Of a DNA stretch of 64,000 bases, positions 8,679-28,074 are shown in pieces. The first letter of the stretch is position 1. Every line of letters begins with the position of its first letter. This DNA is from Candidatus Latescibacterota bacterium (GTDB lineage Bacteria; Latescibacterota; UBA2968; UBA8231), in contig OZ244561.1 of the NCBI GenBank assembly GCA_965217585.1, positions 3,904,001 to 3,968,000 of the forward strand, read 5' to 3'. The position numbers and the translations under genes are program-made. The notes below the pieces were generated by a model that worked only from the letters and a program-made list of their open reading frames with translations, did not search any database and was not told the origin of the DNA.

Positions 8679-11600
8679 ATGAGCGCATGGAGCCGGCAAG
8701 TTGTGAAATTGGTGACCGGAGGTCTCCTCGGGCTGGTGTTGTTGAGCGGGCGGAGTGGGGCGATAGCATCCGAGCCGCAGCTTGAGGGCTGGGTGCGGCT
8801 GGCCTCCGGGCAGCCGGCGGCCGGAGTGCAGGTGCGGCTTTTCAATCTGACCGATCCGCGCCGCTCGGTCGGCACCATTTCGGATGAGGAAGGGTACTTC
8901 GCGCTAGCCGCTCCCCGCTCAGCCAATGCTCGCCCTCAAGGCTTCGCGCTGCTACAGAACTATCCCAATCCGTTCAATCCTTCCACAATTATTCCCTACC
9001 AACTACCGGCACCGACTCACGTGCGGCTGGAGGTCTTCAATGTGCTTGGGCAACACGTCGCCACTTTGATAGATCGGGAACAAGTAGCCGGCTGGCACAC
9101 GGCGACTTGGCACGGTACAGATGCAGCCGGTCGCGCTATGGCAGCGGGGCTTTATCTCTATCGCATCCGTGGGACCGGGCCTAGTGAAACCCGGCGGATG
9201 GTGCTCGTCGATGGACCGGTCAATGCTCCGAGAGCGGCGGTCGCCGCCGAGCCTCCGACGAGATCGGCGGCACCCGAGCCGACCTACGGGCTGACCGTCT
9301 CGGGCCGCGATGTGGTCACCCATGTGGACCCGGACTTCCGGGCCGGCGTCGGACCGGTGGAGATCGTGGTCGAAGCACAGACCAGCGCCACCGGACTGGC
9401 CGCGATGAAGGTGACCACAAAGGACAGGATCTGGGGCGACGTAGATGCCAATGGCCAAGTTGACATTTTTGACGCGCTTCTAGTGGGGTTGTACAGCCTT
9501 GATCCCTCAATTTCCATCCCCAACGATGGCGATATCTCTCTAGGCGATGTGAACCGCGACGGCCTCATAGACATCACTGATGCTTACCTCATCGCCACCT
9601 ATAGCGTCAATCCGACCGACCCCTCGTTGCCGGCGGGGATCGGCACCCCGGTGGTCGTTGTCGCCGAGGGCAAGATGTACTGGGTGGACGCGAGTCGGAT
9701 TGGGGCTAAAATTCAGCGGGCAAACCTCGACGGATCACAAATCGAAACCCTCGTCTCCACCGGGTTGCAGGAGCCGACAGACCTAGCCTTGGATCTAGTC
9801 GGAGACAAGATGTACTGGGTGGATCAGGGTACGGGTAAGATTCAGCGGGCAAACCTCGACGGATCACAAATCGAAACCCTCCTCGCCGAGCGATTCGATA
9901 TACGGAGCTTGGTCCTAGACGTCGCCGGGGGTAAGATGTATTGGATAGACGCGGTCATCGGGGGGCCTAAAATTCAGCGGGCTAATCTCGACGGATCACA
10001 AATCGAAACCCTTCTCGCCGCTGGATTGCGCACTCCACGAGCTCTGGCTATAGACGTCGCCGGGGGTAAGATGTATTGGATAGACGCGGTCATCGGGGGG
10101 CCTAAAATTCAGCGGGCAAACCTCGACGGATCACAAGCCGAAGCCTTCGTCGTCTCCGGATTGGATAGTCCAGAGAGCTTGGTCCTGGACCTTGCCAAGA
10201 GCAAGATGTACTGGACGGATTCATTCACGAATAAGATTCAGCGAGCCAACCTCGATGGATCACAAATCGAAGACCTCGTCTCCACTGGACTAGACGCTCC
10301 AAGCGGCCTAGCGCTGGATGTCGTTGGGGGTAAGATATATTGGACTGATGTGGTAAAGGACAAGATTCAGCGAGCCAACCTCGACGGATCACAAATCGAA
10401 GACCTCGTCTCCACTGGACTGCGAGTTCCATGGGATCTAGCTCTGGAGTTGGCCTACATGCCCTCCGAAGTCAGTGTGAATCGTCCGCCGGTATTGGACG
10501 GCATCCGCAAGCAGAGTGTTGCAGAGGGAGACCTCCTTCGCATCGACTTAGTCGCCCGCGACCCAGAGGGGGCTGAGGTCACCTATGAGGCGCAGTCCAA
10601 CGCTCCCGGCGTGGCGACGGTGAGCGTGTCCGGTCGCCAGATGACGATCACCCCAGTAGAGCTTGGCGTTGCCACGGTAGCGGTGATGGCGAGCGATGCT
10701 AGCGGCGCGACCACCACGCAGACCTTTACGGTGAAAGTGACGGCACCCGCACCCGAGAGCCGGGGTAAAATGTATTGGACTGATGTGGGCACGAACAAGA
10801 TTCAGCGCGCTAACCTCGACGGTTCCCAAATCGAAGACCTCGTCACAGCCGGATTGGATTTTCCAAGCGGCCTCGCGCTGGATGCCGCTAGGGGTAAGAT
10901 GTACTGGATAGACACGGGCACGAACAAGATTCAGCGCGCTAACCTCGACGGTTCCCAAATCGAAGACCTCCTCTCCACCGAATTGAACTTTCGACAGGCT
11001 CTGGCTCTCGACCTGGACGGCGGCAAGATGTACTGGACGGACGAGTGGACCACAAGAAAGATTCAGCGCGCTAACCTCGACGGATCACAAGTCGAAGACC
11101 TCCTCTCCGATAGGAGTAATCCGGCGGGTCTTGCTCTCGACTTGGCTACAGGCAAGATGTACTGGACGGACACCGGTCGCTCTCGCATAGTGCGGACCAA
11201 CCTCGACGGTTCCCAAATCGAAGACCTCGTCACCCGATCATTGAACATTCCACAAGCCCTAGCCCTCGATTTGGCGAGAGGCAAGATGTACTGGATGGAT
11301 CCAGGCACGATAAGGATTCAGCGCGCTAACCTCGACGGATCGCAGGTCGAAGACCTCGTCGTCACCGGATTGGATTATCCAGATGGCCTAGCCCTCGATT
11401 TGGCTGGGAGTAAGATGTACTGGACAGACGCGGGCACAAACAAAATTCAGCGCGCCAACCTCGACGGGACTCGAATCGAAGACCTCGTCATCGGCTTGAG
11501 CGATCCAGTGGGCTTGGCCTTAGACATCCTCACCCCAGATCTGGTAGCCGCGTCGCCTTCGGCGAACCCGCCCAACCCGGCCCCAAGTCAATCCTTCACC

Positions 11601-14860: not shown

Positions 14861-17170
14861 GTGTCGCCATTCCGCCTCTTGCCCTTAGCACTGTGCATGC
14901 TCGTGCCATTCAGCAGCCCCGTTCGTTCCGAGCGGCTAGTTATGACTTCGGCAGATATATGGGAAAACTGGGTGTATCCCGCCGGCGCCCTGCGCCTAGA
15001 CGAAGCAGGCTTGTTGCGGCCGGTGCGGGTCGGCAAAGACATTGATCCGCTCTCTGAGGCTGCTGTTCGTGGGGCCGGAGCGGCACAATCCACTGCTGCC
15101 CGCGCCTTTGACGGCGATCTCGCCACTAGCTGGAATCCACCGCCGGGCACGGCCCCAAAGGACTGGTGGCTCGAGATCGACTTGGGGCAGGTGTTTCCCG
15201 TCCAACAGATTCGCCTGCGCTTTGCCGACAGCGCGCCGCCCTTGCCCTTTTTTACCCTCTCACTCTCCAAGGGCGAGCGCTTTATCAACAGCGCCAACGT
15301 CGTCGTCGAAGGAACCCTAATCTACAGCCACAGCAGGCGCTTTGCCTTCAACGAGGAGCGCGACGTGACGATTGACCTCGACGACGAACTCGTTCAAAGT
15401 CTCCGCATCGAGGCCACTCGCGAAATGACCGGTGCGCCTGCGCTCGCCGAAATCCAAATCAAGGCCTTTGGCGACAATATCGCCTTTGACCTGATTGCCA
15501 AAGGCGGCAGCGCCGATGTCGAGGCTGCCGTCGTCGCCGTGGCTGGCGTTCCTTCCGTCATGTTCGACGGCGACCTCTCGACCATGTGGCGCGTCAACCC
15601 CCTTGCCAAAGGCTACAGCGGCAGCAGCGCGACCTTCGGCGATTACCGCATTGATCTAGGGGCGACCTACTGGATCGATGCGGTCTGGCTCTTGGGTGAG
15701 CCGCTGGGCATTCCGCCGCGGGTGCGGCATCACTACGCCAACTTCCTCTCCTATCAGATGCAGTACTCCGACGGCTCGCTGGCACCCGACGGCTCGCTGG
15801 CCTGGCAGGCGTTGGCCTCCATTCCCTTCGACCCCCGCAACCTCTTCGATGTACGCAACTTTCGCCACGATGTCCCCCTACTCGCCGCCCGCTACCTGCG
15901 TTTGATCTATCCCACTAGCCATGGTGGCAACATCATCGGCGGCGGCCGATCTGGCAGCGATCTCGCCAACACCGGTCGCTTGGATGGGCTGGGCCTAGTT
16001 AGCGAGTTCCAAGTGTACGGCGAGGGATATCCAGCCCGCGTCGTCCTGCGCTCGCCTGTTATCGACCTCGGCACCAATTGGAATATTACGGCGATCGAGT
16101 GGAAAATTGACGCGCCGCTCGGGGCCCAATTCGCCTTGCGCAGCCGCACCGGCGACCACGTCGTCGAGGAGATGCGCTATTTCGACAAAAACGGCAAAGA
16201 GATTACCAAAAGGCGCTACGAAAAGCTGATCGCCTCGTTCCGCGGCCCCATCGAAACCACGCTCCAACCCGGCGATGGCTGGAGCGTGTGGAGCGAGGAG
16301 TACATCCATACAGGCACCCGCTTCCGCTCGCCGTCGCCTCGACGCTACGTCCAGCTCGAAGCCGAACTGCGCGCCGACAACCCGCAGTCTGGCATTGCCC
16401 TCGACGCGCTTATGTTGATCTACTCCCGTCCTTTGGCGCGCACCGCCGTCGGCGAAGTCCACCCGACGCGAGTTGAGCCAGGAGAGCAAACCGACTTCAC
16501 GTACTTCCTCCGCCCAGAATTCGCCCGCGACAGCCAAGGCTTTGAGGCCATCGCCCTCGAAGCCTCGGTGCCTCTTGCGTTCCGCGCCCTGCAAATCGAC
16601 GGCGCGGCAATCAACGCCGAGGTGGAAAAGACGAATGCGGGCCTCCGCCTGCACTTGCCCAAGCGGATCGCAGCCGCCGAGCGCGTCGAGCTAGGTTTCG
16701 CCGCCACGGTCTTCCAAAACAATACCCGCTTCCGCGCCTTTCTAGAGCGCGAAAGCGGGCTTGACACGCTGCGTCAGCAGGTCGATCCAGGCGATGCAGT
16801 TCCTGATTTAGAGGGAGCAGGCGATGCGGTCTCACTGCCCGTGGACGGCAGCTTACTCACGCGCCTAGACCTAGGCGCGGGGATTTTTACCCCCAACGGC
16901 GACGGCGTCAACGACGCGCTCGCCATCTCTTTCGACGTGCTCAAGGTCCTAGACGCCCGCCCCATTGAAGCCCGCATCTACGACCTGCGCGGCCGGCTAG
17001 TCCGCACGCTGCGAGACGCCGCCGGCGTGGCAGGCCACTACCAGCTAACTTGGGACGGCCGCCGCGACTCCGGCGCGATGGCCCGGCCCGGCCTCTACCT
17101 CTTCCGCGTGCAGATCGCTGGCGACTCCGCCACCCACACCTTGGTCCGCAGCATCGGCCTGAGCTACTAA
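14861..17170 (+). CDS. Large secreted protein, discoidin-like domains plus C-terminal FlgD Ig-like domain
   Basis: Signal peptide; AFDGDLATSW, WWLEIDLG; FTPNGDGVND..WDGR..PGLY. Confidence 0.82.
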   Translation: MSPFRLLPLALCMLVPFSSPVRSERLVMTSADIWENWVYPAGALRLDEAGLLRPVRVGKDIDPLSEAAVRGAGAAQSTAARAFDGDLATSWNPPPGTAPKDWWLEIDLGQVFPVQQIRLRFADSAPPLPFFTLSLSKGERFINSANVVVEGTLIYSHSRRFAFNEERDVTIDLDDELVQSLRIEATREMTGAPALAEIQIKAFGDNIAFDLIAKGGSADVEAAVVAVAGVPSVMFDGDLSTMWRVNPLAKGYSGSSATFGDYRIDLGATYWIDAVWLLGEPLGIPPRVRHHYANFLSYQMQYSDGSLAPDGSLAWQALASIPFDPRNLFDVRNFRHDVPLLAARYLRLIYPTSHGGNIIGGGRSGSDLANTGRLDGLGLVSEFQVYGEGYPARVVLRSPVIDLGTNWNITAIEWKIDAPLGAQFALRSRTGDHVVEEMRYFDKNGKEITKRRYEKLIASFRGPIETTLQPGDGWSVWSEEYIHTGTRFRSPSPRRYVQLEAELRADNPQSGIALDALMLIYSRPLARTAVGEVHPTRVEPGEQTDFTYFLRPEFARDSQGFEAIALEASVPLAFRALQIDGAAINAEVEKTNAGLRLHLPKRIAAAERVELGFAATVFQNNTRFRAFLERESGLDTLRQQVDPGDAVPDLEGAGDAVSLPVDGSLLTRLDLGAGIFTPNGDGVNDALAISFDVLKVLDARPIEARIYDLRGRLVRTLRDAAGVAGHYQLTWDGRRDSGAMARPGLYLFRVQIAGDSATHTLVRSIGLSY

Positions 17171-17727
17171 ATGCCTAGCTGGCGCATCAGCGCCCCGTGC
17201 GAGCCACCATGTAGTTCGGGCCGCATATAGACCTTGCGCACGTAGTCGAGCCCGCCGGACAAATGCTCGAATTGCTCCTCTAAGGCACCAAAGAGCCGCG
17301 CTTGCGACACGGAACCGAGCTGCGCCAGTTCGGCTGCTGCCCCATAAGCCCTTCTTCCCTGCTCCAAGTAGTAGCCACCAAGTCCCTGCCGCTCGACCCA
17401 TGTGCGGAAAAGCCCGCTGGTAAAAAGCGCGTAGTCGCCCACGTGCCGGCGGATATCCATCTCGCGGTCGAAGGACCAACGCCGCTCTGGTTGCCGCTGA
17501 CGCCCGAGTTCCACCAGCATCTCGGCGATGGTTTCAAGTGGTTGGCCACGCAAATCGCGGATGCGGTAGAGCTGATCGGTCCGGGCAAAGCTCGTTAGCA
17601 AATCAACGACGTATTCGACCACTTCGCGGTCGGCAATGCCCAACGAAGTAAACCCGGGGAAGACTAGGCGCTGGAAGAAAGATCGCAGCCCGGACGGAGA
17701 GATCGGCTTTGTGATGCGAGGCGGCAT
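17167..17727 (-). CDS. Hypothetical protein (186 aa)
   Basis: Clean ORF with globular helical composition (YVVDLL..F, RHVGDYALF.SG.F, YYLEQGRRAY). Confidence 0.7.
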   Translation of the reverse strand: MPPRITKPISPSGLRSFFQRLVFPGFTSLGIADREVVEYVVDLLTSFARTDQLYRIRDLRGQPLETIAEMLVELGRQRQPERRWSFDREMDIRRHVGDYALFTSGLFRTWVERQGLGGYYLEQGRRAYGAAAELAQLGSVSQARLFGALEEQFEHLSGGLDYVRKVYMRPELHGGSHGALMRQLGI

Positions 17728-17760
17728 ATCGTATTAAAGACGTTCAGTTCAGAATGTACT

Positions 17761-18290
17761 TTAGAAGGTTGTATTGGTCATAAGGTAAGCAAAGGTCATA
17801 TCCCCGTTCCAGTCCTCAATCGAATCCTTGTAACGAGTAACGCTGGTCATGCTGTCGTCGGCTATCACTCGCGAAAGTCCGGCGACTACGGCAAAGCCGG
17901 GACGGTATTTGTAGGTAAGCGTCAAATCGACTTCCTCGCCCAAATGGCTCGATTCCAAGTCCCCCTTTTGCGCTGTGAGGAAAGAGTGCCCGTGGATTCC
18001 AAGGGATGCCTGGTCACTCAACGGCAACGCCGCCTTGAAGGCCAAGTCCTGCAGCCCCAGCCCTCCAGTGTGGACCAGGATATTGAGAAACGGTAGGAGA
18101 ACGCCATCTTTTTGCCCGCTAGACGCACGCCCATAGTGACCTGATCGGTGTCCTTGGCTCCGTCCTTGTTGTAGAGCGCGTAGAGGTCCAAGCTGCCGGA
18201 CGGCAGTTGGTCTAAGGTCGCGTACGCACCCGTCAAATAGGCGTCGTCGGAAAACTGCGTCGAATCCGCCTCGGTCACTTGAATCGCCGG
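17761..18290 (-). pseudogene. Remnant of outer-membrane beta-barrel (alginate-export family-like), 5'-truncated with internal deletion/frameshift near 18088
   Basis: One frame gives YLTGAYATL..LDLYALY..TMGVRLAG; another gives GLQDL..LGEEVDLTLTYKY..AYLMTNTTF* (C-terminal Phe); no signal peptide. Confidence 0.6.
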
Positions 18291-18427
18291 CGGAATAGAT
18301 TGCAAGACGCACGGCGTTCCCCCAACGTAAAGGTGGCATAGATACGGATAAGTTAAACCGCGAATCTCGATCAAGCTACTTGCTTTTTATGGGTGGTTGC
18401 GTCTAGATAATGCAGCGCACCCAGCGC

Positions 18428-18745
18428 TTAGCGCAGCAGCCGTTCGCTAAACAGCGTCCGCGCTAGAGCGCGCACGTCCCGCTCACCAGCCAAATGGGTC
18501 TGCCCCACCGACACCAGCACCACCTCGACCTCCCCAAGCCCTACCCGATAGACGATGCGGAACCAGCCGCCCGGCGGACGCAGGCAGCGATAATCCCTTA
18601 ACTCGCCGACCAAGGGCCAGCCCTGTTCCTCGGGGTCAATTGCCAGCCCGGTGATGTATTGGTCCACTTGCTCGGCGATCCGCCGGTTGAGCAAACCTTG
18701 CCGCGACTCTAAGGCGCGCTGCGCCAAGACGACGCGAAACATCAT
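18428..18745 (-). CDS. RelE/ParE-family toxin
   Basis: L..DPEEQG.PL.GELRDYR.LR...FRIVYRV...VEVVLV; ATG overlaps antitoxin stop (ATGA). Confidence 0.8.
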   Translation of the reverse strand: MMFRVVLAQRALESRQGLLNRRIAEQVDQYITGLAIDPEEQGWPLVGELRDYRCLRPPGGWFRIVYRVGLGEVEVVLVSVGQTHLAGERDVRALARTLFSERLLR

Positions 18746-18999
18746 TGCGCCTCCCAAACAGCGCGCTCGCCCGCCTCAATCTGGCGGATGCCTTCGCGCA
18801 GCGCGGCACATTGGGCCTCGTCGCCGAGCACCTCTAAGGTTTCGACAATGCCCTGGTAAAGCGACCACGGCATCAGCGCGAGTATCGGCTGGCCGCGGCG
18901 CGTTACAGCGAGGGCACTCGCTTCGGGTTCGGCGGCGAAGCGATCAGGCAATTGATTCAGGACTTTGCGGGCTTCGGCGATGGGCATGGATTGGAGCAT
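18742..18999 (-). CDS. Phd/YefM-family antitoxin
   Basis: IAEARKVL..L, AVTRRGQP...LM...Y..IVETLEVL; GAGG RBS. Confidence 0.88.
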   Translation of the reverse strand: MLQSMPIAEARKVLNQLPDRFAAEPEASALAVTRRGQPILALMPWSLYQGIVETLEVLGDEAQCAALREGIRQIEAGERAVWEAQ

Positions 19000-19011
19000 A
19001 TTTCCTCTCTT

Positions 19012-19039
19012 GTACCGTATAGGGTACTAAATTGAGTAC
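19012..19039. promoter_or_regulatory. Probable TA operator: GTAC-N8-GTAC-N8-GTAC
   Basis: GTAC at 19012, 19024, 19036 (12-bp period) directly upstream of antitoxin. Confidence 0.65.
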
Positions 19040-19172
19040 TCTTGGCGACGGTCTGGTTGGCCCATAATTGTAGAATTTCTCCGTGAATCTGCAAGAGCGT
19101 GGAAATTGCCAATGAATAACCTATTGATAATACTCTGCATATGAGAATCTTGAAAAAGGCACGCAATTGTGC

Positions 19173-19200
19173 GTACATTTAACGGTACTAAAAAGCGTAC
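19173..19200. promoter_or_regulatory. Second GTAC-N8-GTAC-N8-GTAC array
   Basis: GTAC at 19173, 19185, 19197; shares GGTACTAAA core with first array. Confidence 0.5.
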
Positions 19201-19343
19201 TTTAATGCAAAGCTAAATTTTCAATCAGACGCGACGGGATTCCGGCTGCGATCTGCTGCGATGTGGGCCGCTTTTTTGGCTGCAATAATAGTGCGTTTAC
19301 TTCCCCGTTGGCATTCCCTTTTCCCGCGCTTATATTTCCGCGC

Positions 19344-20207
19344 ATGTCCGACGGCGAATTCATCCGGCCCTTTCCCGCGCTCACCTCCGCCCAGCGCTAT
19401 CACCTCGAAGTCTATGGCTATGTGGTGATTGAAAACGCGCTCGAGCAAGACCTGACGGATCGCCTGCTAGAGGCCATGCTCCGGCTCAAAAGCGATCTCC
19501 TGTCCTCCACGGATCCAGCTAAAGCCCGCGTCCGCAATTGCCGTCTCGCCGCCTATCGGCCTCACTACCTGCACTTTGCTCATATCCTCGAAGCCGATCC
19601 TGCGATCTTCGAATACCTGACTCATCCTCGCTTGGTCGGCATGGCCGAGGAGCTAGTTGGCGGCAGCGTGCGCCTCGAAGAATCCGAGGCCGTCGTCAAC
19701 GAGCGAGACCCGGAAATCGACCTCGCTGCCGCGCCGCGCTACGGCTTCCACACCGGCACCACCCCAGACGTGGGCACGTACGTCGAAAACGGCCTCTACC
19801 ACTGCACCTTTGTCAAAACCCTGACCAACCTCACGGAGCTAGGCCCAGACGACGGCGGCACCGTGGTCATCGCCGGCAGCCACAAGGTCAAAAGCGACCG
19901 CGAGCCCATCATCGCGGCGGCTTACGAGGATCCCACGCTGATCCACCAAGTGATCGCGCCCGCCGGATCAACCCTGCTCTTTGGCGAAGCTCTGATCCAC
20001 GCCACCGGCCAGATCCGCTCCGACCGCGAGCGCGTCATCGTCATCGGTGGCTATACCCCGCCGATGTTCCAAGCTTGGAACGGCCAAGAGCCGAGCGCTG
20101 AATTCATCGCCCAAACGCCCGAACCCCTCAAGCCGCTCCTTTCCGGCAGCGACAAGTGGAGCTGGCAGCAGCGCCGTCGCCGCCTCGACATGCCGGTCGC
20201 CTCGTGA
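19344..20207 (+). CDS. PhyH-family Fe/2OG enzyme with HxG in place of HxD
   Basis: GYVVIENAL, FHTG, DGGTVVIAGSHK, AGSTLLF.EALIH..R; start at ATG 19344. Confidence 0.85.
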   Translation: MSDGEFIRPFPALTSAQRYHLEVYGYVVIENALEQDLTDRLLEAMLRLKSDLLSSTDPAKARVRNCRLAAYRPHYLHFAHILEADPAIFEYLTHPRLVGMAEELVGGSVRLEESEAVVNERDPEIDLAAAPRYGFHTGTTPDVGTYVENGLYHCTFVKTLTNLTELGPDDGGTVVIAGSHKVKSDREPIIAAAYEDPTLIHQVIAPAGSTLLFGEALIHATGQIRSDRERVIVIGGYTPPMFQAWNGQEPSAEFIAQTPEPLKPLLSGSDKWSWQQRRRRLDMPVAS

Positions 20208-20458
20208 GTCTTTGCTGGCCGTGACCCAACTCGCCTTTGGGTTAGCCAAAATTGGTCGGTAAAAGGGAACAACGCCAAGACAATATCGCCGAAACTAAAT
20301 TATCCCAGACTCGACTAACGCTGGCCTTAGCAGTAGAAAAATCTGAGCGGGAGAGCGTCTCTCCCATCTTCCCAGCGGCACCATCGGACCGCGTGGGTTT
20401 TAGCTGCTAAGTGCGCTTGAATTCCAACTTTACTTGGACCCCGTCTCGCCGTGGGGCA

Positions 20459-21358
20459 TCAGCGAGCATCAACAGGCTTTGCGCCGCCTTCGGAATTGCC
20501 CTGCTCCAAGACCTGCGAGCTGACAAGCTCGATAATCTGCGGCAGTGTCATAGCGCCAATACGTCGGGCCTCGCGCAACAAGAGTAGCGCGGCGACGGTC
20601 GCATCCGCGCTCGCCGCAACCCGTTGCAAGTTCTCCCGGATGGTTCGAGGCAGGGTATCCCCAATGGCTTCCAGAAGATCGGACTCGATTCGTTGTTCAA
20701 GGACGCGCTCTCGTTCGTTTTCGTCGGCTTCGGACAGGACTCTGCGCCATTCCTCGAGATGCTTTGAGCGGATTTCCAGCAGGTCAAGCCCTGGATTGCC
20801 CAACCGAGCGGCACACTCCTCAACTATCGGATCGAACCGATGAGCTTCCCAGACTAGATCAATGCGCCCCCTGAGGTCGGCGACGAGCCTTGGGCCATCC
20901 TCCGGGTCGTCGAGTAGGTCGCAGGCTTCAATTGCGCCATTGAGTGCCTCTTGAAGTCTGCCGGCAAGATAGATGCAGCAATCGCAGTAGTGAGCGGCAC
21001 TGTCTGGCGAGCCTCGCCCGCACGCCTCCTTGAACCAACGATGAACAAAGGCATACGTTTTCTGATCCCGTTTCTTGCTAATGTCTAAGTTGTGAGCCAC
21101 GTAGGTTCGCAAAGTGGACATTTCGTTGCGGAGTGAACTATTGGCCTTTAGCGGCGGCAACTTCGTGAGAAACGCGAGCGTGATCTTTGCCGCTTCGTTG
21201 ACAAGCGCATATCCCCAGATGACTAAGCGATAGAATGCCAGTTCGTCGCTAAAATCGGATGGCAACGGCAGCGAGATTTCGGCACAACCGTTTGGCGAGT
21301 GGATGGAGACGCGAGTGCGGAGTGTTTGGTACAGGTTGCTGAGTTCAATCGGAGTCAT
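20459..21358 (-). CDS. Hypothetical helical protein with HEPN-like R-x4-H motif
   Basis: 299-aa ORF; N-E-x3-L-R-T-Y-V-A-H-N; start overlaps upstream stop (ATGA 21355-21358). Confidence 0.7.
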   Translation of the reverse strand: MTPIELSNLYQTLRTRVSIHSPNGCAEISLPLPSDFSDELAFYRLVIWGYALVNEAAKITLAFLTKLPPLKANSSLRNEMSTLRTYVAHNLDISKKRDQKTYAFVHRWFKEACGRGSPDSAAHYCDCCIYLAGRLQEALNGAIEACDLLDDPEDGPRLVADLRGRIDLVWEAHRFDPIVEECAARLGNPGLDLLEIRSKHLEEWRRVLSEADENERERVLEQRIESDLLEAIGDTLPRTIRENLQRVAASADATVAALLLLREARRIGAMTLPQIIELVSSQVLEQGNSEGGAKPVDAR

Positions 21359-24300
21359 CGTCTCCGCCCCAAGCGTGAGAGCGGATCGGCAATGGGGCCA
21401 ATGTAGTTAAATGCAATGCCAAAGTTTCGCAGTTCGCGACCATGGGCGAAATCGTCGTTTGGGAAATCGCGCGCTAGCACCCTGATTGGCCTTTCGATAC
21501 CCTCTACTCGAATCCAGTCAGTTTCACCCCTTTTCTCGACGCGTCCCCGGAATTGACGCGTGGAACCGCTCTCATCCTTCGCCACGAGCCACCGTACCAC
21601 CCGTGATCGATCCTCATATTCGGTGTCGTGTGACAGCGACCGCCAGAGTTCGATGGCACGGTTCGTGTCTTTGAGTAGCCAGCACAGCACCGCTTCAAGG
21701 AACCGTTCCCGGTTGCGTGCGTCATCACCGGCCTGCTCATTGAGGGCACTCACGATCGCACGAAGCTCCAAAATTTGGCCGGTGTCCACAGGTGTGCGGC
21801 CATGCTGATTGAACATCAGGCGATCTCCTGTCGCTTGCGTCCAGCGCAATCTGAGCAAAAGCCGTTGGCAGCGGTCGTCCAGTGCTATTCCTGTATTGAC
21901 CCGATTAGATATGTAGTCCGCCGCTTCCGCTGCGATTCTGCGAGTCTTGTCGTCGAAGGGCGGCTCGCTCATATAGACATGCTCCGCTCGACGCTTTGCG
22001 ATAAGGAAGGTTGCTGCCGCAGGAGCGACGCTTTCCAACTTGGCAAGCGTCTCGTCACTCAGCTTCGCATCGCCCATAACGTATGCGGCGCGGCTTCGAC
22101 TCTCAAGATATCTCGTTTTTTGATCTATGGAGACCAAATCTTCGTCCAGATCACTGTCTTTGTGCAAATAGCTCGACGTCTCGGTACTCTGTTCCTTCAC
22201 CCTAAAAATATCATCTGCAACGTCGACAGTTGCGTATAGGTCGGCTAATAGTTCCGCACATTGCACATCTGACAGTTCGTCCTTTTTTGAGTTGAGAACA
22301 TCGCGTCCCGTCCATAGGGCGATATCAATTGGGTAGTAGTCTCTGCCAAGCCCAATGGCTTTCTCACTTGCCACCCTGGCGGCGAGATAATCTGACCAAA
22401 AGGCTTCTCCTGTGCCGACCCGCGCGCGCTCGACGGCAAGATATCCGTATATCGCCGCACGTTCCGCAACAAGGCTTTGTTTTGTCTTTCTGGATACTGG
22501 AATTTTCTCGTCGTCAATTTGATGTAGTGTTTTTTCGACCGTATCGCGAGCCTCATCCAGGATTGCAAATCTTTCGTCGTCGGTCCTATTTGTATCACAA
22601 TCACTTTGCAACTGGAAGACTGCCCGTCGACGAAACACACACTCGCGCAAAACGAGGTCTGGGTCGGACATTCTATTGTGCTCCCGTAACTCTTTTAGTG
22701 TGTCGGCAAACCGCAGATAACCAGAGCGGTACGCCTCTTTACGCGGCCCGTTCCGATCAATTTTGAACAGCAGGTCAAGCAGGAACGAACGTTCGGCGCT
22801 TTTATCTACTCCAGGTCTGACACAGCTAATAAGATCGAGGAGTCGCTCGATTTCCTGACCTGGAGTAAGCCTTCCTCTGCATATGAGCTCTGCCTCAAGC
22901 TGTATGCGTGGCGAAATCAGGAAATCCGATCCTTCTTCATCCTCTCGCCAGCGGAACAGATCAAGATCGGCAAGGAGATAGGTGATTTGATCCAAATGCA
23001 GTCCACCTGTCTGGCCAAGCACTCGAAAAAGAAGATTAACGGGCACTGCACAATTCAGTCGGCCGGCCACCATGACGTAGTCAATTAGCCGGCCCGACTC
23101 ATCCAAGCCCAAAGCCGCGAGTTTTTCATCCTCCTCGAATATCTGCGAGGAGGGACTGGCAATGCCTAAATCAATTAACTGCTCCGCTAGGGGAGAGATC
23201 CCAGTAGATGGTTGCGGTACATCCCGTGCCCGATCCCGCACCACACCTTCGGTAGCTCTCGCTTCCGATGACACGCCTGTGGCAAGGCGCTCGCGTGAGG
23301 CAGGCAAACTGCGGTACAGCATGGCGAAGATCGAGTCAGTATTAGGCAGGCTATAGTGTAGCTGGAGACGGAATTCGTTCTGTAGCTCCTTGAACGCAGA
23401 CAACTCTGCCGGCGAAACGTGGTCAGGGGCCTCGACGAACCGATCCGACTTGCGAGCAGTACGGCTCTCCATTCGATAGCAAGTGCCGACTATGAGCAAG
23501 TGCCGACCCCGACTTCGCAACGCGGAGGCTACATCGTCGTAGCGGGGCGGGGCCTGGCTGGAGTCACAGATTAAGACTGTTGCCATCGCCCCCAAACGCT
23601 CAGACTCTAGACAGAACGCTTCGATGTCTGCATGATTTGGTATTCGGTTTGTTGCAACGACAACAGGCAAACGCAATTCACGACGTATCTTTCGAGTTAA
23701 CCGTGCAAGTGCAATGCTTTTTCCGGTGCCCGACTGCCCATGTAGGATAACCACATCGTCGGAGTCGGCTTGCCCAAGCCGTTTTAGTTTGTTTTTTACC
23801 GTCTTCCAAAGGGTCTGCTCGAATTCGCGTTCCACTGCAAATCCGCGTGCCACACCCTCTATCAGCAATCTGAAGTTACCAAGCGTACCGTGGAATCGGC
23901 GGAATGCATCGTCTAATTCGGATTCGCCTAATGACTCGGGATCTTCTGTCCATCCATCGTCAACAATAGCCGCAGACGCCTCCACTCGCAGACGCAGGGC
24001 CGGAGTGATGTCCAGTGCCCTTTCCCCGGAGATCGACACCATGCCCGGCTCGTCCGGGGCAGCGGACCCTGAAACATCAAGCACACCGCGGAGTTCAAGT
24101 TGGCTTATTGCGCTTGCAAGGGTCGTTGTGGTTTCAATGAGTGCGCCTTGCTCAATCATCTCGTCGGCGAAGATCGAGTCCGGCTTGCCCGAGGAGCCAA
24201 ACCATAAAACCTTGGGGCCGAATTGGCCGGATAGAGGTGCCAATAGCGAGTCTATCGGCATCCAATCCTTGCTTGAATCGTAGCCTGCTATGACCACCAA

Positions 24301-24849
24301 GCCGCGCACTGTCGCGGTTTCCGCGATGCGGTTTAGCAATTCCGTCGCGTGCCCGCTGAGGCGGCGCTGCAGATCGCTTTGCTTTCTAGGTGCTCGTGCC
24401 TCCTCGACGGTTTCATTGGACTTTCCAAGGAGATAGTGAATCGGCGGTCTTGATCGGCTACGCGGCACTCTCGCATAGGTATCTCTGGAAAGCACCGACT
24501 CGGGCTGTCGCCCTCTGGTCTCGAAACGCCGCGCAAACTGGGGATCTATGGACGAGGTGAACACCGCACTCCAAGCGACATCAAAGATGAGAGCAACGGC
24601 ATCAGAGGGCACACTTCGTTCAAACCGCTCGGAAAGCCAATCCATGTCGACCGCACTCATGCCCTGCTTGAGCGCGGCGCACCATCCCGAATTGCAATCT
24701 GTGCATCCAGAGCGATCGAGGAGAGCACCAAGTATGGCATCATGGGCCGAGTCGAGACTCTGGCCTGCTAATAGCACCAGCGGCCGCTTCTCCTTATTCT
24801 GAAGTGCGTCGCTAAGTATTTCAATAGGATCAGTCGATGAGCTTAGCAT
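21355..24849 (-). CDS. STAND-like P-loop NTPase: degenerate SIR2-like N-terminus, helical repeats, C-terminal OB fold (SAMD9/Avs-like); putative defence protein
   Basis: LVLLAGQ..WSAVFTSSID..IHYLLG..VVIAGYD; Walker A GQSGTGKS; Walker B VLICD; C-terminal FRGRV..WIRV..FGIAFNYIGPIA. Confidence 0.75.
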   Translation of the reverse strand: MLSSSTDPIEILSDALQNKEKRPLVLLAGQSLDSAHDAILGALLDRSGCTDCNSGWCAALKQGMSAVDMDWLSERFERSVPSDAVALIFDVAWSAVFTSSIDPQFARRFETRGRQPESVLSRDTYARVPRSRSRPPIHYLLGKSNETVEEARAPRKQSDLQRRLSGHATELLNRIAETATVRGLVVIAGYDSSKDWMPIDSLLAPLSGQFGPKVLWFGSSGKPDSIFADEMIEQGALIETTTTLASAISQLELRGVLDVSGSAAPDEPGMVSISGERALDITPALRLRVEASAAIVDDGWTEDPESLGESELDDAFRRFHGTLGNFRLLIEGVARGFAVEREFEQTLWKTVKNKLKRLGQADSDDVVILHGQSGTGKSIALARLTRKIRRELRLPVVVATNRIPNHADIEAFCLESERLGAMATVLICDSSQAPPRYDDVASALRSRGRHLLIVGTCYRMESRTARKSDRFVEAPDHVSPAELSAFKELQNEFRLQLHYSLPNTDSIFAMLYRSLPASRERLATGVSSEARATEGVVRDRARDVPQPSTGISPLAEQLIDLGIASPSSQIFEEDEKLAALGLDESGRLIDYVMVAGRLNCAVPVNLLFRVLGQTGGLHLDQITYLLADLDLFRWREDEEGSDFLISPRIQLEAELICRGRLTPGQEIERLLDLISCVRPGVDKSAERSFLLDLLFKIDRNGPRKEAYRSGYLRFADTLKELREHNRMSDPDLVLRECVFRRRAVFQLQSDCDTNRTDDERFAILDEARDTVEKTLHQIDDEKIPVSRKTKQSLVAERAAIYGYLAVERARVGTGEAFWSDYLAARVASEKAIGLGRDYYPIDIALWTGRDVLNSKKDELSDVQCAELLADLYATVDVADDIFRVKEQSTETSSYLHKDSDLDEDLVSIDQKTRYLESRSRAAYVMGDAKLSDETLAKLESVAPAAATFLIAKRRAEHVYMSEPPFDDKTRRIAAEAADYISNRVNTGIALDDRCQRLLLRLRWTQATGDRLMFNQHGRTPVDTGQILELRAIVSALNEQAGDDARNRERFLEAVLCWLLKDTNRAIELWRSLSHDTEYEDRSRVVRWLVAKDESGSTRQFRGRVEKRGETDWIRVEGIERPIRVLARDFPNDDFAHGRELRNFGIAFNYIGPIADPLSRLGRRR

Positions 24850-24965
24850 GGTCTATTATCATTCATTACGTAGTGGGTCTTGACGATGCGGAAAAACCGC
24901 ATCAGGCGAATACCCCATGCGCTCGAATATGGGGAAAATCTACCCTGCTCTTGTTAATAAGGTAC

Positions 24966-24995
24966 ACTCTGCGAAAACTCTGCGAAAACTCCGCG
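24966..24995 (+). repeat. Short tandem repeat ACTCTGCGAAA x2 plus ACTCCGCG
   Basis: Direct inspection; lies at right edge of the low-GC cassette. Confidence 0.7.
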
Positions 24996-25033
24996 CTATC
25001 CGCGTTTTGCCGCAATTCCTATCTTAATTTTCT

Positions 25034-26032
25034 ATGCCCCAGCTCGCGCACCCATACCTATTGTTCCTCGGCGACGCCTCCGACCAGCTAGCCGCCAAAA
25101 CAGCCGTTGGCGTCGCCCACTGGCGGCCCGAACAGTGCATTGGTCAGCTCCGCCTTCCCGACTGCCACGCCGACCTCGGACTGCCCGACCAAACCCTCGC
25201 CGAAGCCCGCGCCGCCGGTGCCCGCACCCTCATCATCGGCGTCGCCAATCGCGGCGGCACCATCTCCGATCTTTGGCGCGAGACCTTCCTGCAGGCCATC
25301 GACCTCGGCTACGACCTCGCTAGTGGCCTGCACACGCGCCTTGGCACCATCCCCGGCTTGGCCGACCGCGCCCGCGCAAAGGGCAAACGCCTCGTGGATG
25401 CGCGCTTTCCCGACCGCGCTTTTCCCATTGCAACCGGCGTCAAACGCCCGGGCAAACGCCTGCTCACCGTCGGTACCGATTGCTCGGTCGGCAAGATGTT
25501 CACCGCGCTGGCCATTGAGCGCGAGATGCAGGCGCGAGGCATGGCCTGCACCTTCCGCGCCACTGGCCAAACCGGCATCTTCATCGCCGGGACGGGCGTT
25601 TCCGTTGACGCCGTGGTTTCCGACTTCCTCGCTGGGGCCGTCGAGGTCCTGATCCCGGCCAACCACCCCGAGCACTGGGACCTAATCGAAGGCCAAGGTT
25701 CGCTGTTCCACGCCTCCTATGCCGGCGTATCGCTGGGCCTCATGCACGGTGCCCAGCCCGACGCGCTCGTCCTCTGCCACGATCCCAATCGCCCTCATAT
25801 GCGCGGCCTACCCGAATACCGGCTGCCCGATCTGCTCGACTGCATTCGCCTCAACGAGCAGTGCGGCCGGCTCACCAACCCGGCCTGCCGCACCGTTGGC
25901 ATTGCGGTCAACACTTCGCACCTGCCGGAAAACCGCGCCTCCGAACTGCTCAGTACTATAGAACGCCAAGCCGGCCTGCCCGCAGTCGATCCTCTGCGCC
26001 AAGGAGCCGCGCGCTTGGTCGATGCCCTGTGA
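25034..26032 (+). CDS. dgcN: DUF1611-family D-glutamate N-acetyltransferase DgcN
   Basis: PYLLFLGD..AAKTA, ASGLH, VGTDCSVGKM, ATGQTG, EGQGSLFH, HGAQPD. Confidence 0.88.
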   Translation: MPQLAHPYLLFLGDASDQLAAKTAVGVAHWRPEQCIGQLRLPDCHADLGLPDQTLAEARAAGARTLIIGVANRGGTISDLWRETFLQAIDLGYDLASGLHTRLGTIPGLADRARAKGKRLVDARFPDRAFPIATGVKRPGKRLLTVGTDCSVGKMFTALAIEREMQARGMACTFRATGQTGIFIAGTGVSVDAVVSDFLAGAVEVLIPANHPEHWDLIEGQGSLFHASYAGVSLGLMHGAQPDALVLCHDPNRPHMRGLPEYRLPDLLDCIRLNEQCGRLTNPACRTVGIAVNTSHLPENRASELLSTIERQAGLPAVDPLRQGAARLVDAL

Positions 26033-27009
26033 CTGGATTCTCCATTCGCGGTAAGAGCTTTCCACTCGCCCAGACCTTCACCATTTCGCGCGGTGCCAAG
26101 ACCACCGCCGACGTCGTTGTCGTCGAACTGAGCCGCGATGGCTGTATTGGCCGCGGCGAGTGCGTCCCTTATCCCCGCTACAACGAAAGCATGGCCGGGA
26201 CCATAGGCGCGCTAGAATCGCTGCGCCCACAGGTCGAAGCCGACCTCGACCGGGCGGCATTGCAACGCGCTCTGCCGCCCGGCGCCGCCCGCAACGCCTT
26301 GGACTGCGCCCTCTGGGATCTGGAAGCCAAACTCAGCGACCGCCCGGTCTATGAGCTGGCCGGCCTAGCGGCACCGCGCCCAGTGGCGACGGCCTACACC
26401 CTCTCGCTCGACGACCCAGAGGCCATGGGTCGGGCCGCTGCCCTGCACGCCGACCGCCCTCTGCTCAAGATTAAACTCGCCGGGCGCGACGACCTCGACC
26501 GCGTCGCCGCGATCCGCGCCAACGCCCCAGACTCGACCCTGATCGTCGATGCCAACGAAGGCTGGTCTCCCGCCCAAGTCGAACCGCTCTCAGTCGCATT
26601 GGCTCGCTTGGGCGTCGCACTCATCGAACAGCCTTTACCCGCCACCCAAGACGCCTTGCTCGCCGAACTCGAACACCCGGTCCCCTTCTGCGCCGACGAA
26701 TCCTGCCACACTGCCGCCGATCTCGCGGAACTGGCCTCCCGCTACGAATGCGTCAACCTCAAGCTCGACAAGACCGGCGGCTTCAGCGAGGGCCTGCGCT
26801 TGGCAGCCGAGGCGCGCACGTGCGGATTGGACTTGATGGTCGGCTGCATGATCGCCACCTCGCTGGCCATGGCACCGGCTGTCCTGCTGGCGCAACAAGC
26901 CCGCTTCGTCGATCTCGACGGTCCCTTGCTCCTGCAAAAAGATCGGGAGCACGGGCTGCGCTACGAAGGCAGCCTCCTCCATCCGCCCCACTCTCAACTC
27001 TGGGGATAG
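26029..27009 (+). CDS. dgcA: N-acetyl-D-Glu racemase DgcA / L-Ala-D/L-Glu epimerase
   Basis: FTISRGAKT, GECVPYPRY, ARNALDCALWD, KIKL, DANE, EQP, ADES, KLDKTGG, DLDG; GTG overlaps dgcN stop. Confidence 0.88.
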   Translation: MTGFSIRGKSFPLAQTFTISRGAKTTADVVVVELSRDGCIGRGECVPYPRYNESMAGTIGALESLRPQVEADLDRAALQRALPPGAARNALDCALWDLEAKLSDRPVYELAGLAAPRPVATAYTLSLDDPEAMGRAAALHADRPLLKIKLAGRDDLDRVAAIRANAPDSTLIVDANEGWSPAQVEPLSVALARLGVALIEQPLPATQDALLAELEHPVPFCADESCHTAADLAELASRYECVNLKLDKTGGFSEGLRLAAEARTCGLDLMVGCMIATSLAMAPAVLLAQQARFVDLDGPLLLQKDREHGLRYEGSLLHPPHSQLWG

Positions 27010-27105
27010 GCGACTCGCGCGTCAGCAAACCCTGCAGGGGTTGTTTGCTGGACGCAGGTAGCGATTGAGTGTATTCTTCCAAAACGAACCGCAGATTTCA
27101 ATCTA

Positions 27106-28074
27106 ATGAGCAACGCATTCCTATTATTTGCCCAAGGACTGGACGAGGCCGCGCTGCAACGCGCCGTACCGCCGTCCATCCGGCCAAAGCAGATCGAGTC
27201 GTTGGCATGGCACGGCGACGCGCGCTCGGTAGGCTTGTCACCTGCAGTGCTAGAAGGCGCGCTAGAAATCCTGCCGTGCCTCTCGGTCGTCCACGACGGC
27301 GCGTGGGGCTATCAGTTCGCAATGGAATGCGAAACCAAAACTGGCAATAGCAGCCGAGCTGTCCTCGACCCGGTCGGCTCGTTTATCGGGGCTGAAGCGG
27401 GCGCGACAAACGAGGCGGTGGAAGCGGATATCGACCTCCTGCGCATCCGCACCCCCTTGCAAGCGGCCACCCTACACCTGCGCGTCCAAGGCATCGCTCC
27501 CGAGGCCCCGGCCTTGCTCTCGGTCTCGGTGCGCCGCAAGGGCGCCGTGCCCGCTCCGACCCTCGCCAGCCGAGATACGGCTCTCGCGGTGCCGCCGCAA
27601 AGCCAGATGACTCTGCGGCCCGAGCTAGCTTCCCGCGTCTGCTCGCCGACCAGCGTCGCCATGCTCCTCGCCTATTACGGCCATAGCGCGGACATCTACG
27701 ACGTGATCTCAGAAGCGCGCCACCAGCCCAGCGGACTATACGGCGTGTGGCCGGCCAATATCCATGCCGCTGCTCGCCGGGGCCTCTTGGGCTATCTATT
27801 GCACTTTCCCTCTTGGGAGGCAGTGCGCACGCTGCTCGACGCGGGCTTTCCCATTATTGCCTCCGTGCGCTACGAGGTGGGCGAGTTGAGCCGGGCGGCC
27901 ATTGAGCGGACGGCTGGGCATTTGCTGGTCGTGCGGGGTTGCGCCGGGGATACCGTGCTGGTCAACGACCCGGCCGCGGCCACCGAGGTCGCACGGGCGT
28001 ACGACCTAGCGGAATTCTGCAAAATCTGGTTGGAGCGCAGCGCCGTGGGCTACGTGCTCTTTCCGCCGTTGTAA
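27106..28074 (+). CDS. C39-like (C39_2) cysteine peptidase family protein
   Basis: VP..SQ, CSPTSVAM, YGVWP.N, GHLLVVRG, VNDP. Confidence 0.8.
   Translation: MSNAFLLFAQGLDEAALQRAVPPSIRPKQIESLAWHGDARSVGLSPAVLEGALEILPCLSVVHDGAWGYQFAMECETKTGNSSRAVLDPVGSFIGAEAGATNEAVEADIDLLRIRTPLQAATLHLRVQGIAPEAPALLSVSVRRKGAVPAPTLASRDTALAVPPQSQMTLRPELASRVCSPTSVAMLLAYYGHSADIYDVISEARHQPSGLYGVWPANIHAAARRGLLGYLLHFPSWEAVRTLLDAGFPIIASVRYEVGELSRAAIERTAGHLLVVRGCAGDTVLVNDPAAATEVARAYDLAEFCKIWLERSAVGYVLFPPL

Follow-up and report, generated by a model that had tools for sequence, protein, structure and literature searches.

A mobile gene pair of Latescibacterota joins a SAMD9/Avs-like STAND protein with a degenerate SIR2 site to a separately encoded candidate effector

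The bacterial proteins Avs5, Avs6 and Avs9 are built on a common chassis to which a SIR2, a PNP or an AlbA_2 effector is fused, as passages of one study describe (PMC12680541), and sections of another deal with two-gene conflict systems in which a STAND NTPase has its effector on the neighbouring gene (PMC8195603). The human genes SAMD9 and SAMD9L, which are both antiviral and linked to disease, are activated in a way that is still under study, and Avs5, Avs6 and Avs9 serve as tractable models for them. The present analysis deals with two adjacent genes in a 64,000-nucleotide stretch of a Candidatus Latescibacterota bacterium genome (assembly GCA_965217585.1, contig OZ244561.1, positions 3,904,001 to 3,968,000; hereafter, the window, to whose positions the coordinates refer): (i) a large gene, encoding a SAMD9/Avs5-like STAND protein (P0001); and (ii) a small gene, encoding an all-helical partner (P0002). 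With about as much confidence as doubt, we read the pair as a STAND-type immune cassette, most likely directed against phages, in which the partner would be a nuclease activated in trans, probably acting on RNA or tRNA.

The assignment of the large protein to the SAMD9/Avs chassis is solid. Its AlphaFold2 (AF2) model, built on an alignment of 59 sequences which includes a sister clade at about 27% identity, has a mean predicted local distance difference test score (pLDDT) of 85.9. When this model was compared by Foldseek with the Protein Data Bank (PDB), the best matches were electron cryo-microscopy (cryo-EM) chains of human SAMD9 (expect values, E, from 6.3e-19 to 2e-17), followed by EfAvs5 (E 4.9e-14) and the AVAST5 filament and, after these, by Avs3, a STAND-TPR protein, DSR2 and ThsA. 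A structural aligner independent of Foldseek matched ATPases of the NLR and CED-4 types to residues ~270-700 and TPR proteins to residues ~700-940. The last 220 residues are covered by SAMD9 alone, in an alignment which spans SAMD9 residues 389 to 1589. Furthermore, the order of the SAMD9/Avs9 core (Sir2-like domain, P-loop NTPase, TPR region and C-terminal OB domain) is matched by P0001. A first-pass annotation of this DNA, prepared from the letters alone, had proposed a SAMD9/Avs-like STAND protein, and the fold comparisons bear it out.

At the level of sequence, the PDB yielded only generic P-loop matches (FtsY/SRP, E of at least 0.03), whether it was searched with P0001, P0002 or a profile of P0001. 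Pfam sees only the NTPase in P0001, as a match to PF25199 (nSTAND_NTPase5) with an E of 5.2e-6 and 26.8 bits, under the 34-bit cut-off; the same family is matched by all the 33 aligned relatives (best E 6.7e-12) and is listed for most homologues in precomputed Pfam annotations. The Walker A motif (GQSGTGKS) is intact, since G371, G376 and K377 are invariant in the 59 sequences. As regards the beta-rich C-terminal domain, F1143 is invariant and A1146, F1147, N1148, G1151 and P1152 are nearly so; the ESM Atlas gives a weak lead (score 0.77) to the S1/CSD domain of TOTE systems, and the domain is possibly OB- or S1/CSD-like.

The N-terminal SIR2 fold had been described from the outset as degenerate, and this description holds: the protein starts with a SIR2 fold, and the positions of the catalytic Asn and His are occupied by Ser and Leu throughout the family. 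The positions were located with the help of a distant relative of 986 amino acids (P0480), in which Pfam recognises SIR2_2 (E 3.4e-19), nSTAND5 (79.3 bits) and canonical TPRs, and to which the family profile aligns by hhalign over 917 columns (99.6%, E 1e-24). This alignment pairs VFTSSID with IYTTNYD, and YLLG with KING, of P0480. The Asn of TTNYD is replaced by Ser100 in P0001, and Leu141 stands where, to judge from the typical SIR2_2 motif KLHG, the catalytic His would be. The family keeps both substitutions, but not the adjacent His138. Judged by its motifs, the site, which has neither the catalytic Asn nor the catalytic His, is enzymatically dead. On the other hand, the Gly-rich AGQS and the GYD elements persist and the domain has invariant residues of its own (G29, R114, P154, G183 and D195), which argues that it is selected for a purpose other than NAD+ hydrolysis. 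Given the loss of both catalytic residues, we read the domain as a putative scaffold for oligomerisation or docking, a role comparable to that of the Sir2-like domain of SAMD9L, which parts of a cryo-EM preprint present as a scaffold and dimer interface (10.64898/2026.02.01.703102). Between the two degenerate motifs lies an almost invariant Arg-rich loop, PRSRSRPP (amino acids 129-135, window 24445-24465), at the place where sirtuins have a small zinc/helical module; it may contact phosphate or nucleic acid.

The second main result is the pairing. In all 25 loci the large gene has the small one immediately downstream, at identities ranging from 94% to ~22%, and the two are usually joined by a 4-nucleotide overlap or a short gap. 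This count takes in (i) all 22 genome loci found via the small protein, including those of Rhodovulum (45% and 52% identity) and Methylomicrobium (28% and 27%); and (ii) both metagenome loci found via a distant member of the small family (P0300, ~22% identical to P0002, from a clade at ~22-28%). One metagenome-assembled genome (MAG) of Spirochaetia contains two divergent copies of the pair (L016, and L073 at G170:C1:3254000-3266000), one with identities to P0001/P0002 of 61%/63% and the other of 37%/29%; its second copy brings the count to 25. Some copies are decayed: at L021:4525-8564 frameshifts split the large gene over three frames and an internal stretch of the small gene is deleted, and at L022:7998-8507 the small gene ends after ~166 residues. 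The pair is obligate, and the co-occurrence of homologues on which the first-pass annotation had staked its proposal was observed at every locus. In a separate arrangement (L020), the pair is bracketed by paralogous small coiled-coil genes (4142-4462 and 8947-9405; 76% identical over 117 aligned positions), consistent with either insertion into a tandem array or duplication of a flank.

These observations bear on the simplest explanation of the locus, namely, that the large protein simply belongs to Avs5 or Avs9 and the gene after it is there by chance. Such an explanation would account for the chassis, which is that of EfAvs5 and SAMD9, with an nSTAND-type NTPase and a SIR2 fold, but it fits poorly elsewhere and we hold it to be very improbable: the PADLOC model of Avs5 gives no match, the Asn and His of the Avs5 NADase are replaced, AlbA_2 is absent from a protein which begins with the SIR2 fold at residue 6, and the downstream gene, being conserved in all 25 loci with tight spacing, is not incidental. 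With PADLOC 2.0.0, P0001 (no matches at E<=1) and P0002 went unrecognised, and the two divergent homologues scanned did not match the Avs5 profile; in all, none of the three divergent pairs scanned was recognised.

The partner is assigned to no family of Pfam, NCBIfam or PADLOC. Its own family, as collected by an exhaustive profile search at E<=1e-3, comprises 423 representative clusters at 50% identity, and four of its polar residues (E39, E55, R84 and H89) are the same in every one of 60 sequences, even at 18% identity. L83, T85 and N90 are nearly invariant, which gives the motif LRTxxxHN; R84 and H89 are also kept in the seven of seven relatives that are fused or extended. The R-x4-H motif, picked out at first from a single sequence, is a conserved property of the family. 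In the AF2 model, a long bundle (residues 1-160) is followed by a three-helix unit (~169-245) and then by a helical tail. In the wider family, this tail reads LPITGxD...PGPxVG and resembles the end of tRNA_NucTran2_2 (PF13735), a domain of CCA-adding enzymes: 26 of 60 family members match PF13735 (best E 7.2e-7), though matches of single members are short (model positions ~101-145 of 149, 16-22 bits, E 2e-4 to 0.013, mostly below the cut-off; seven of ten members scanned singly), and P0002 itself, whose tail has diverged, has none. A zinc site was also considered and dropped: C25, C113, C128, C146 and C182 are conserved in close relatives, but most of them are lost family-wide, C113 alone being nearly invariant. 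The E39/E55/R84-x4-H89-N90 cluster is the probable active site of the partner.

An R-x4-6-H motif is the signature by which HEPN RNases are often recognised, and the partner had been called HEPN-like in the first-pass annotation. Here the claim divides: the motif is real, with R84 and H89 invariant in the 60 sequences, but membership of the HEPN superfamily finds no support and is not accepted, the results of Pfam, hhalign, the fold searches and the ESM Atlas all falling short of significance. The sole hint from Pfam is HEPN_Swt1 at residues 72-110 (E 0.14, 12.8 bits against a cut-off of 27.5), a match which recurs in three of 30 close relatives at E of at least 0.066. In hhalign against 26 Swt1-like domains from genomes of the same phylum, a set which represents the Swt1-like family only, the whole protein scored 3.9% and its N-terminal domain 0.3%, although in the latter the motifs do align. 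The nearest named cluster of the ESM Atlas, RnlA-DBD/HEPN_RnaseLS, lies at 0.75, below the lead threshold of that resource. Finally, three fold searches gave no HEPN structure among the matches listed, and no nuclease fold. As for HEPN domains elsewhere, the same genome encodes a 1113-amino-acid protein (G000:C1:883444-886782) with an N-terminal Swt1-like HEPN domain (E 3.4e-36, RNKWAH) followed by a P-loop-like motif, GGGKTH; reading frames of ~1110-1130 amino acids with a Swt1-like HEPN domain occur in many genomes of the phylum, of which 49 of 168 have a HEPN_Swt1 match.

Our leading guess, drawn from its conserved residues, is that the partner is an RNA or tRNA nuclease. RNA, perhaps tRNA, is suggested as the target because the tail is similar to the end of CCA-adding enzymes that binds tRNA; we infer both the chemistry and the target from the motif and the tail. 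A more specific proposal can be put forward tentatively, as possible but with the balance against it: the partner would represent a new class of RNA/tRNA nuclease, with a non-HEPN or very divergent fold, an E/E/R-x4-H-N site and a CCA-enzyme-like tRNA-binding tail, which is switched on in trans by a SAMD9-type STAND protein whose dead SIR2 domain is only an assembly platform. If this were true, a bacterial system would repeat the logic of SAMD9, a STAND chassis with a tRNA-cleaving output, with a swappable effector on a gene of its own, and the SAMD9 chassis would be effector-agnostic and older than any particular effector.

The fusions found within the small family can be read in two ways. 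Two relatives carry an added domain after the entire module, R/H site and tail included (TIR_2 in P0287 and PNP_UDP_1 in P0360), and match the TIR and PN effector models of PADLOC; since these are classical defence effectors, the fusions place the partner family on the output side. They would also be expected of a carrier or adaptor, and it is conceivable, but in our judgement rather unlikely, that in a genuine defence system the partner is an adaptor, regulator or co-sensor which docks on the STAND protein, its R/H/E cluster contacting either a ligand or the surface of that protein. Toxicity would then have another source: a domain appended in some relatives, a host factor or some non-canonical activity of the SIR2-like domain, in which nucleotide-binding-like AGQS/GYD motifs and the invariant residues mentioned above persist. 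In line with this alternative, the partner has yielded no nuclease fold, and in two further relatives (P0362 and P0390) the module stands behind an N-terminal region of ~300 amino acids with weak AAA+ lid matches (AAA_lid_14), an arrangement which by itself suggests an alternative, fused NTPase-like partner. Nevertheless, added TIR or PNP effectors occur in only two of the 150 representatives listed, and the stand-alone majority would be left without a recognisable effector, since the SIR2 Asn and His are substituted family-wide; moreover, that four polar residues stay fixed even at 18% identity is what one would sooner expect of a catalytic site than of a docking surface. An active nuclease remains our preferred reading of the partner.

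The pair travels as a horizontally mobile, accessory and patchily distributed cassette. When window positions 17000-28000 were compared by BLAST with the five complete genomes of the same genus that have no pair, the flanks were found to abut in all five (query 3208-3235 joins 8040), so that the cassette is a clean 4.8-kb insertion or deletion between the stop of the PhyH gene and the start of DUF1611, with an imperfect 9-mer at the junction (ccaactcgc / ccagctcgc). Two metagenome runs (X1 and X5) contain contigs that join position 20224 to 25038 alongside the filled form, and hence filled and empty alleles coexist in natural populations. Of the 168 genomes of the phylum, 12 have a strong match to the small protein, and six of these 12, counting the present genome (G000), belong to the window's own genus; in a 400-genome sample of the class of another carrier (G168), the small protein was found in that genome alone. 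Clustering of the flanks of 21 genome loci (L021, with its broken large gene, was dropped) gave at least 13 neighbourhoods, two of them recurrent and 11 unique. According to record titles, the pair is present in Latescibacterota, Gemmatimonadota, Acidobacteriota, Binatia, Spirochaetia and Alpha- and Gammaproteobacteria, and some record names suggest sponge-associated samples. Inside the cassette there are no terminal repeats, integrase, other mobility gene or RNA gene, and a repeat scan gave short, chance-like matches only.

A role in defence is suggested by the closest folds of the large subunit, which are those of immune proteins, by the accessory and patchy distribution of the pair, which is present or absent even within populations, by the rare TIR and PNP fusions described above, and by the neighbours of the pair at two loci. 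In a Binatia MAG (L015:9020-15362), genes for a type III restriction enzyme, with ResIII and an endonuclease domain, and for an N6/N4 DNA methylase come after the pair; in a Methylomicrobium MAG (L023:907-2583 and L023:9540-11929), the pair is directly followed by a Septu-type PtuA (PADLOC E 1.3e-201) and PDC-M01B (E 4e-114), with a D5_N/DUF5906 primase-helicase upstream, an arrangement suggestive of a minor defence island carried by a mobile element. At the window's own locus and at the other sampled loci, the neighbours are metabolic. That fact weighs against a role in defence, as do two negative searches: no relative was found in IMG/VR with alignment A1, nor in phage and plasmid records with P0001 at E<=1e-10. 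One might also think of a non-immune signalling module, for instance one in which a MalT-like STAND regulator, together with a sigma-like or RNA-binding partner, would govern gene expression or RNA metabolism in the host; this fits poorly, and we regard it as improbable.

If the pair is indeed an immune cassette, its operation could be pictured as follows. By analogy with Avs and SAMD9, the C-terminal TPR/helical repeats and the beta domain would sense an infection cue; NTP binding at the intact P-loop would then drive assembly, for which the dead SIR2 domains might provide the platform; and the assembly would recruit, or allosterically activate, the separately encoded 299-residue partner, which would stand in for the effector that Avs5, Avs6 and Avs9 carry fused at the N terminus. 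The E/E/R-x4-H-N cluster would be the active site of a metal-independent nuclease, probably acting on RNA or tRNA, and the outcome would be translation arrest.

As regards the locus itself (Table 1), it was much as the first-pass annotation had described it. Both minus-strand reading frames are present, the stop of the large one and the start of the small one sharing an ATGA overlap (gacgATGActcc), and all the motifs quoted from them (LLAGQS, VFTSSID, IHYLLG, GQSGTGKS, VLICD, FGIAFNYIGPIA and LRTYVAHN) are found in the translations. In 500-nucleotide windows, the GC content is 0.49-0.59 across the pair, as against 0.61-0.69 in the right flank and mostly 0.58-0.65 in the left one, so the pair is the AT-richer insert that had been noticed. 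It also lies antisense among genes that are metabolic by annotation and on the opposite strand: PhyH dioxygenase (19263-20207) on the left and, from 25034 onwards on the right, DUF1611, an MR_MLE epimerase-like gene, a C39-like peptidase and a PfkB kinase. Both reading frames are real conserved genes and not chance ones, since a word-indexed search found 170 relatives of the small protein and 384 of the large one at E<=1e-3. The public gene call of the large protein (P0123, 1096 amino acids) starts 68 residues later than the 1164-residue frame and thereby loses two parts of the SIR2 fold, its conserved first strand and its AGQS motif. The longer frame has the right start, since residues 23-30 hardly vary among the 59 homologues.

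Upstream of the large gene lies a short tandem repeat whose copy number varies in the population, given that one contig of metagenome run X5 is without exactly 11 nucleotides at 24966; it may be an operator or other regulatory site, or a slippage site. Scans of the cassette for promoters and terminators gave no signal above shuffled controls, and a scan with Rfam gave no family above noise, its one match (sR53, E 0.044) lying outside the cassette and being taken as chance. A metatranscriptome-library run (X23) contains contigs 90-95% identical to 20913-21305 and 24356-24856; they belong to a related strain, DNA carry-over is possible, and they are not counted as evidence of transcription. Elsewhere in the window (14861-17170) a gene encodes a 769-amino-acid protein which combines a discoidin (F5/8 type C) domain with a sorting signal for type IX secretion (CHU_C/FlgD-Ig) at its C terminus.

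Table 1. Window coordinates of the cassette, its two genes and their domains (aa, amino acids; nt, nucleotides)
Feature	Position	Strand	Remarks
Accessory cassette, 4.8 kb	20235..25038	.	Two genes plus ~225 nt 3' and ~190 nt 5' non-coding DNA; clean indel
Large subunit (P0001), 1164 aa, SAMD9/Avs5-like STAND NTPase	21355..24849	-	
SIR2-fold domain, aa 6-260, degenerate catalytic motifs	24070..24834	-	A28-G29-Q30-S31, T98-S99-S100-I101-D102, Y139-L140-L141-G142
P-loop NTPase core, aa 333-470, Pfam nSTAND_NTPase5	23440..23853	-	Walker A G371-S378 at nt 23716-23739; Walker B D429
Helical and winged-helix-like STAND arm, aa 480-660	22870..23412	-	
TPR-like/helical repeat region, aa 663-1075, presumed sensor arm	21625..22863	-	
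Beta-rich C-terminal domain, aa 1085-1160, conserved FxIAFNYIGPIADP	21370..21597	-	Strands 1100-1156 in the AF2 model
Small subunit (P0002), 299 aa, all-helical	20459..21358	-	AF2 pLDDT 91.1
Invariant R84-x4-H89-N90 motif (LRTYVAHN), end of helix 75-88	21089..21109	-	
C-terminal helical tail of the small subunit, aa 237-290	20489..20650	-	
11-nt tandem unit actctgcgaaa, two copies and a partial third	24966..24987	.	Read directly; ~120-140 nt upstream of the ATG of the large gene

The interest of the pair lies in what it separates. In Avs5, Avs6 and Avs9 the effector is fused to the chassis; here, chassis and presumed output lie on two genes and the SIR2 enzyme appears to have been retired. The pair thus offers a natural split system in which to ask (i) what the non-enzymatic role of a Sir2-like domain may be; (ii) how the assembly of a STAND protein activates a protein not fused to it; and (iii) whether attack on tRNA or RNA is a recurrent output of the SAMD9-type chassis. 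It also adds an unannotated family with four invariant polar residues, in hosts which belong to poorly studied uncultured phyla, including Latescibacterota and Binatia. The parallel with the tRNA-cleaving output of SAMD9 is attractive; the function of the system and the chemistry of the partner are the more conjectural part of the comparison.

When compared with SAMD9, SAMD9L and Avs9, the pair has neither a SAM domain nor the AlbA_2 tRNase domain (Pfam gives no AlbA_2 match), and the output has apparently been shifted to a separate gene of an unrelated and unnamed family. P0001 is only ~10% identical to SAMD9 in sequence, and its Walker A motif is a canonical GKS where SAMD9 has GGT/S. Avs5 (AVAST type 5, with EfAvs5 and PaAvs5) shares with P0001 a central STAND NTPase, whose Walker A motif is intact in P0001, and Avs structures align. 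In Avs5, the SIR2 domain is an NADase effector, and the catalytic Asn of TTNYD and His of KLHG are its motifs for NAD+ hydrolysis, whereas P0001 has Ser and Leu at these positions. Furthermore, Avs5 is a single gene and the present system an obligate pair, and the extra C-terminal helical and beta domain of P0001 is matched by SAMD9 only.

The SIR2_2-nSTAND5-TPR proteins, of which P0480 is the example, are true full-length homologues with a common NTPase family (PF25199); P0480 differs from P0001 in that it keeps TTNYD, passes the SIR2_2 model, is shorter and has canonical TPR matches in Pfam. With the HEPN RNases (Swt1-like, RnlA/LsoA and PrrC-type), the partner shares an all-helical build, an invariant R-x4-H with a polar residue after it where a helix ends, and conserved acidic residues upstream; its profile matches to them are not significant, and no HEPN structure was among the fold matches listed. 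The EAD/Death-like adaptor systems of the Aravind laboratory and the nSTAND2 pairs resemble the present system in that a STAND NTPase has its effector on the gene next to it; they are coupled by a shared homotypic adaptor domain or consist of two STAND proteins, whereas no shared adaptor domain is evident between P0001 and P0002. In the literature on STAND, Avs, SAMD9, SIR2 and TOTE conflict systems, no description of the pair was found in the portions covered, among them term look-ups in PMC12803255, 10.64898/2026.01.04.697583, PMC13581612, PMC12680541, PMC8195603 and eLife 52696; the clade may be listed in the tables that supplement the 2026 STAND survey (589 clades) and the SAMD9/Avs9 paper. 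The pair is probably a new split variant of Avs/SAMD9-type immunity, with an effector so far unclassified.

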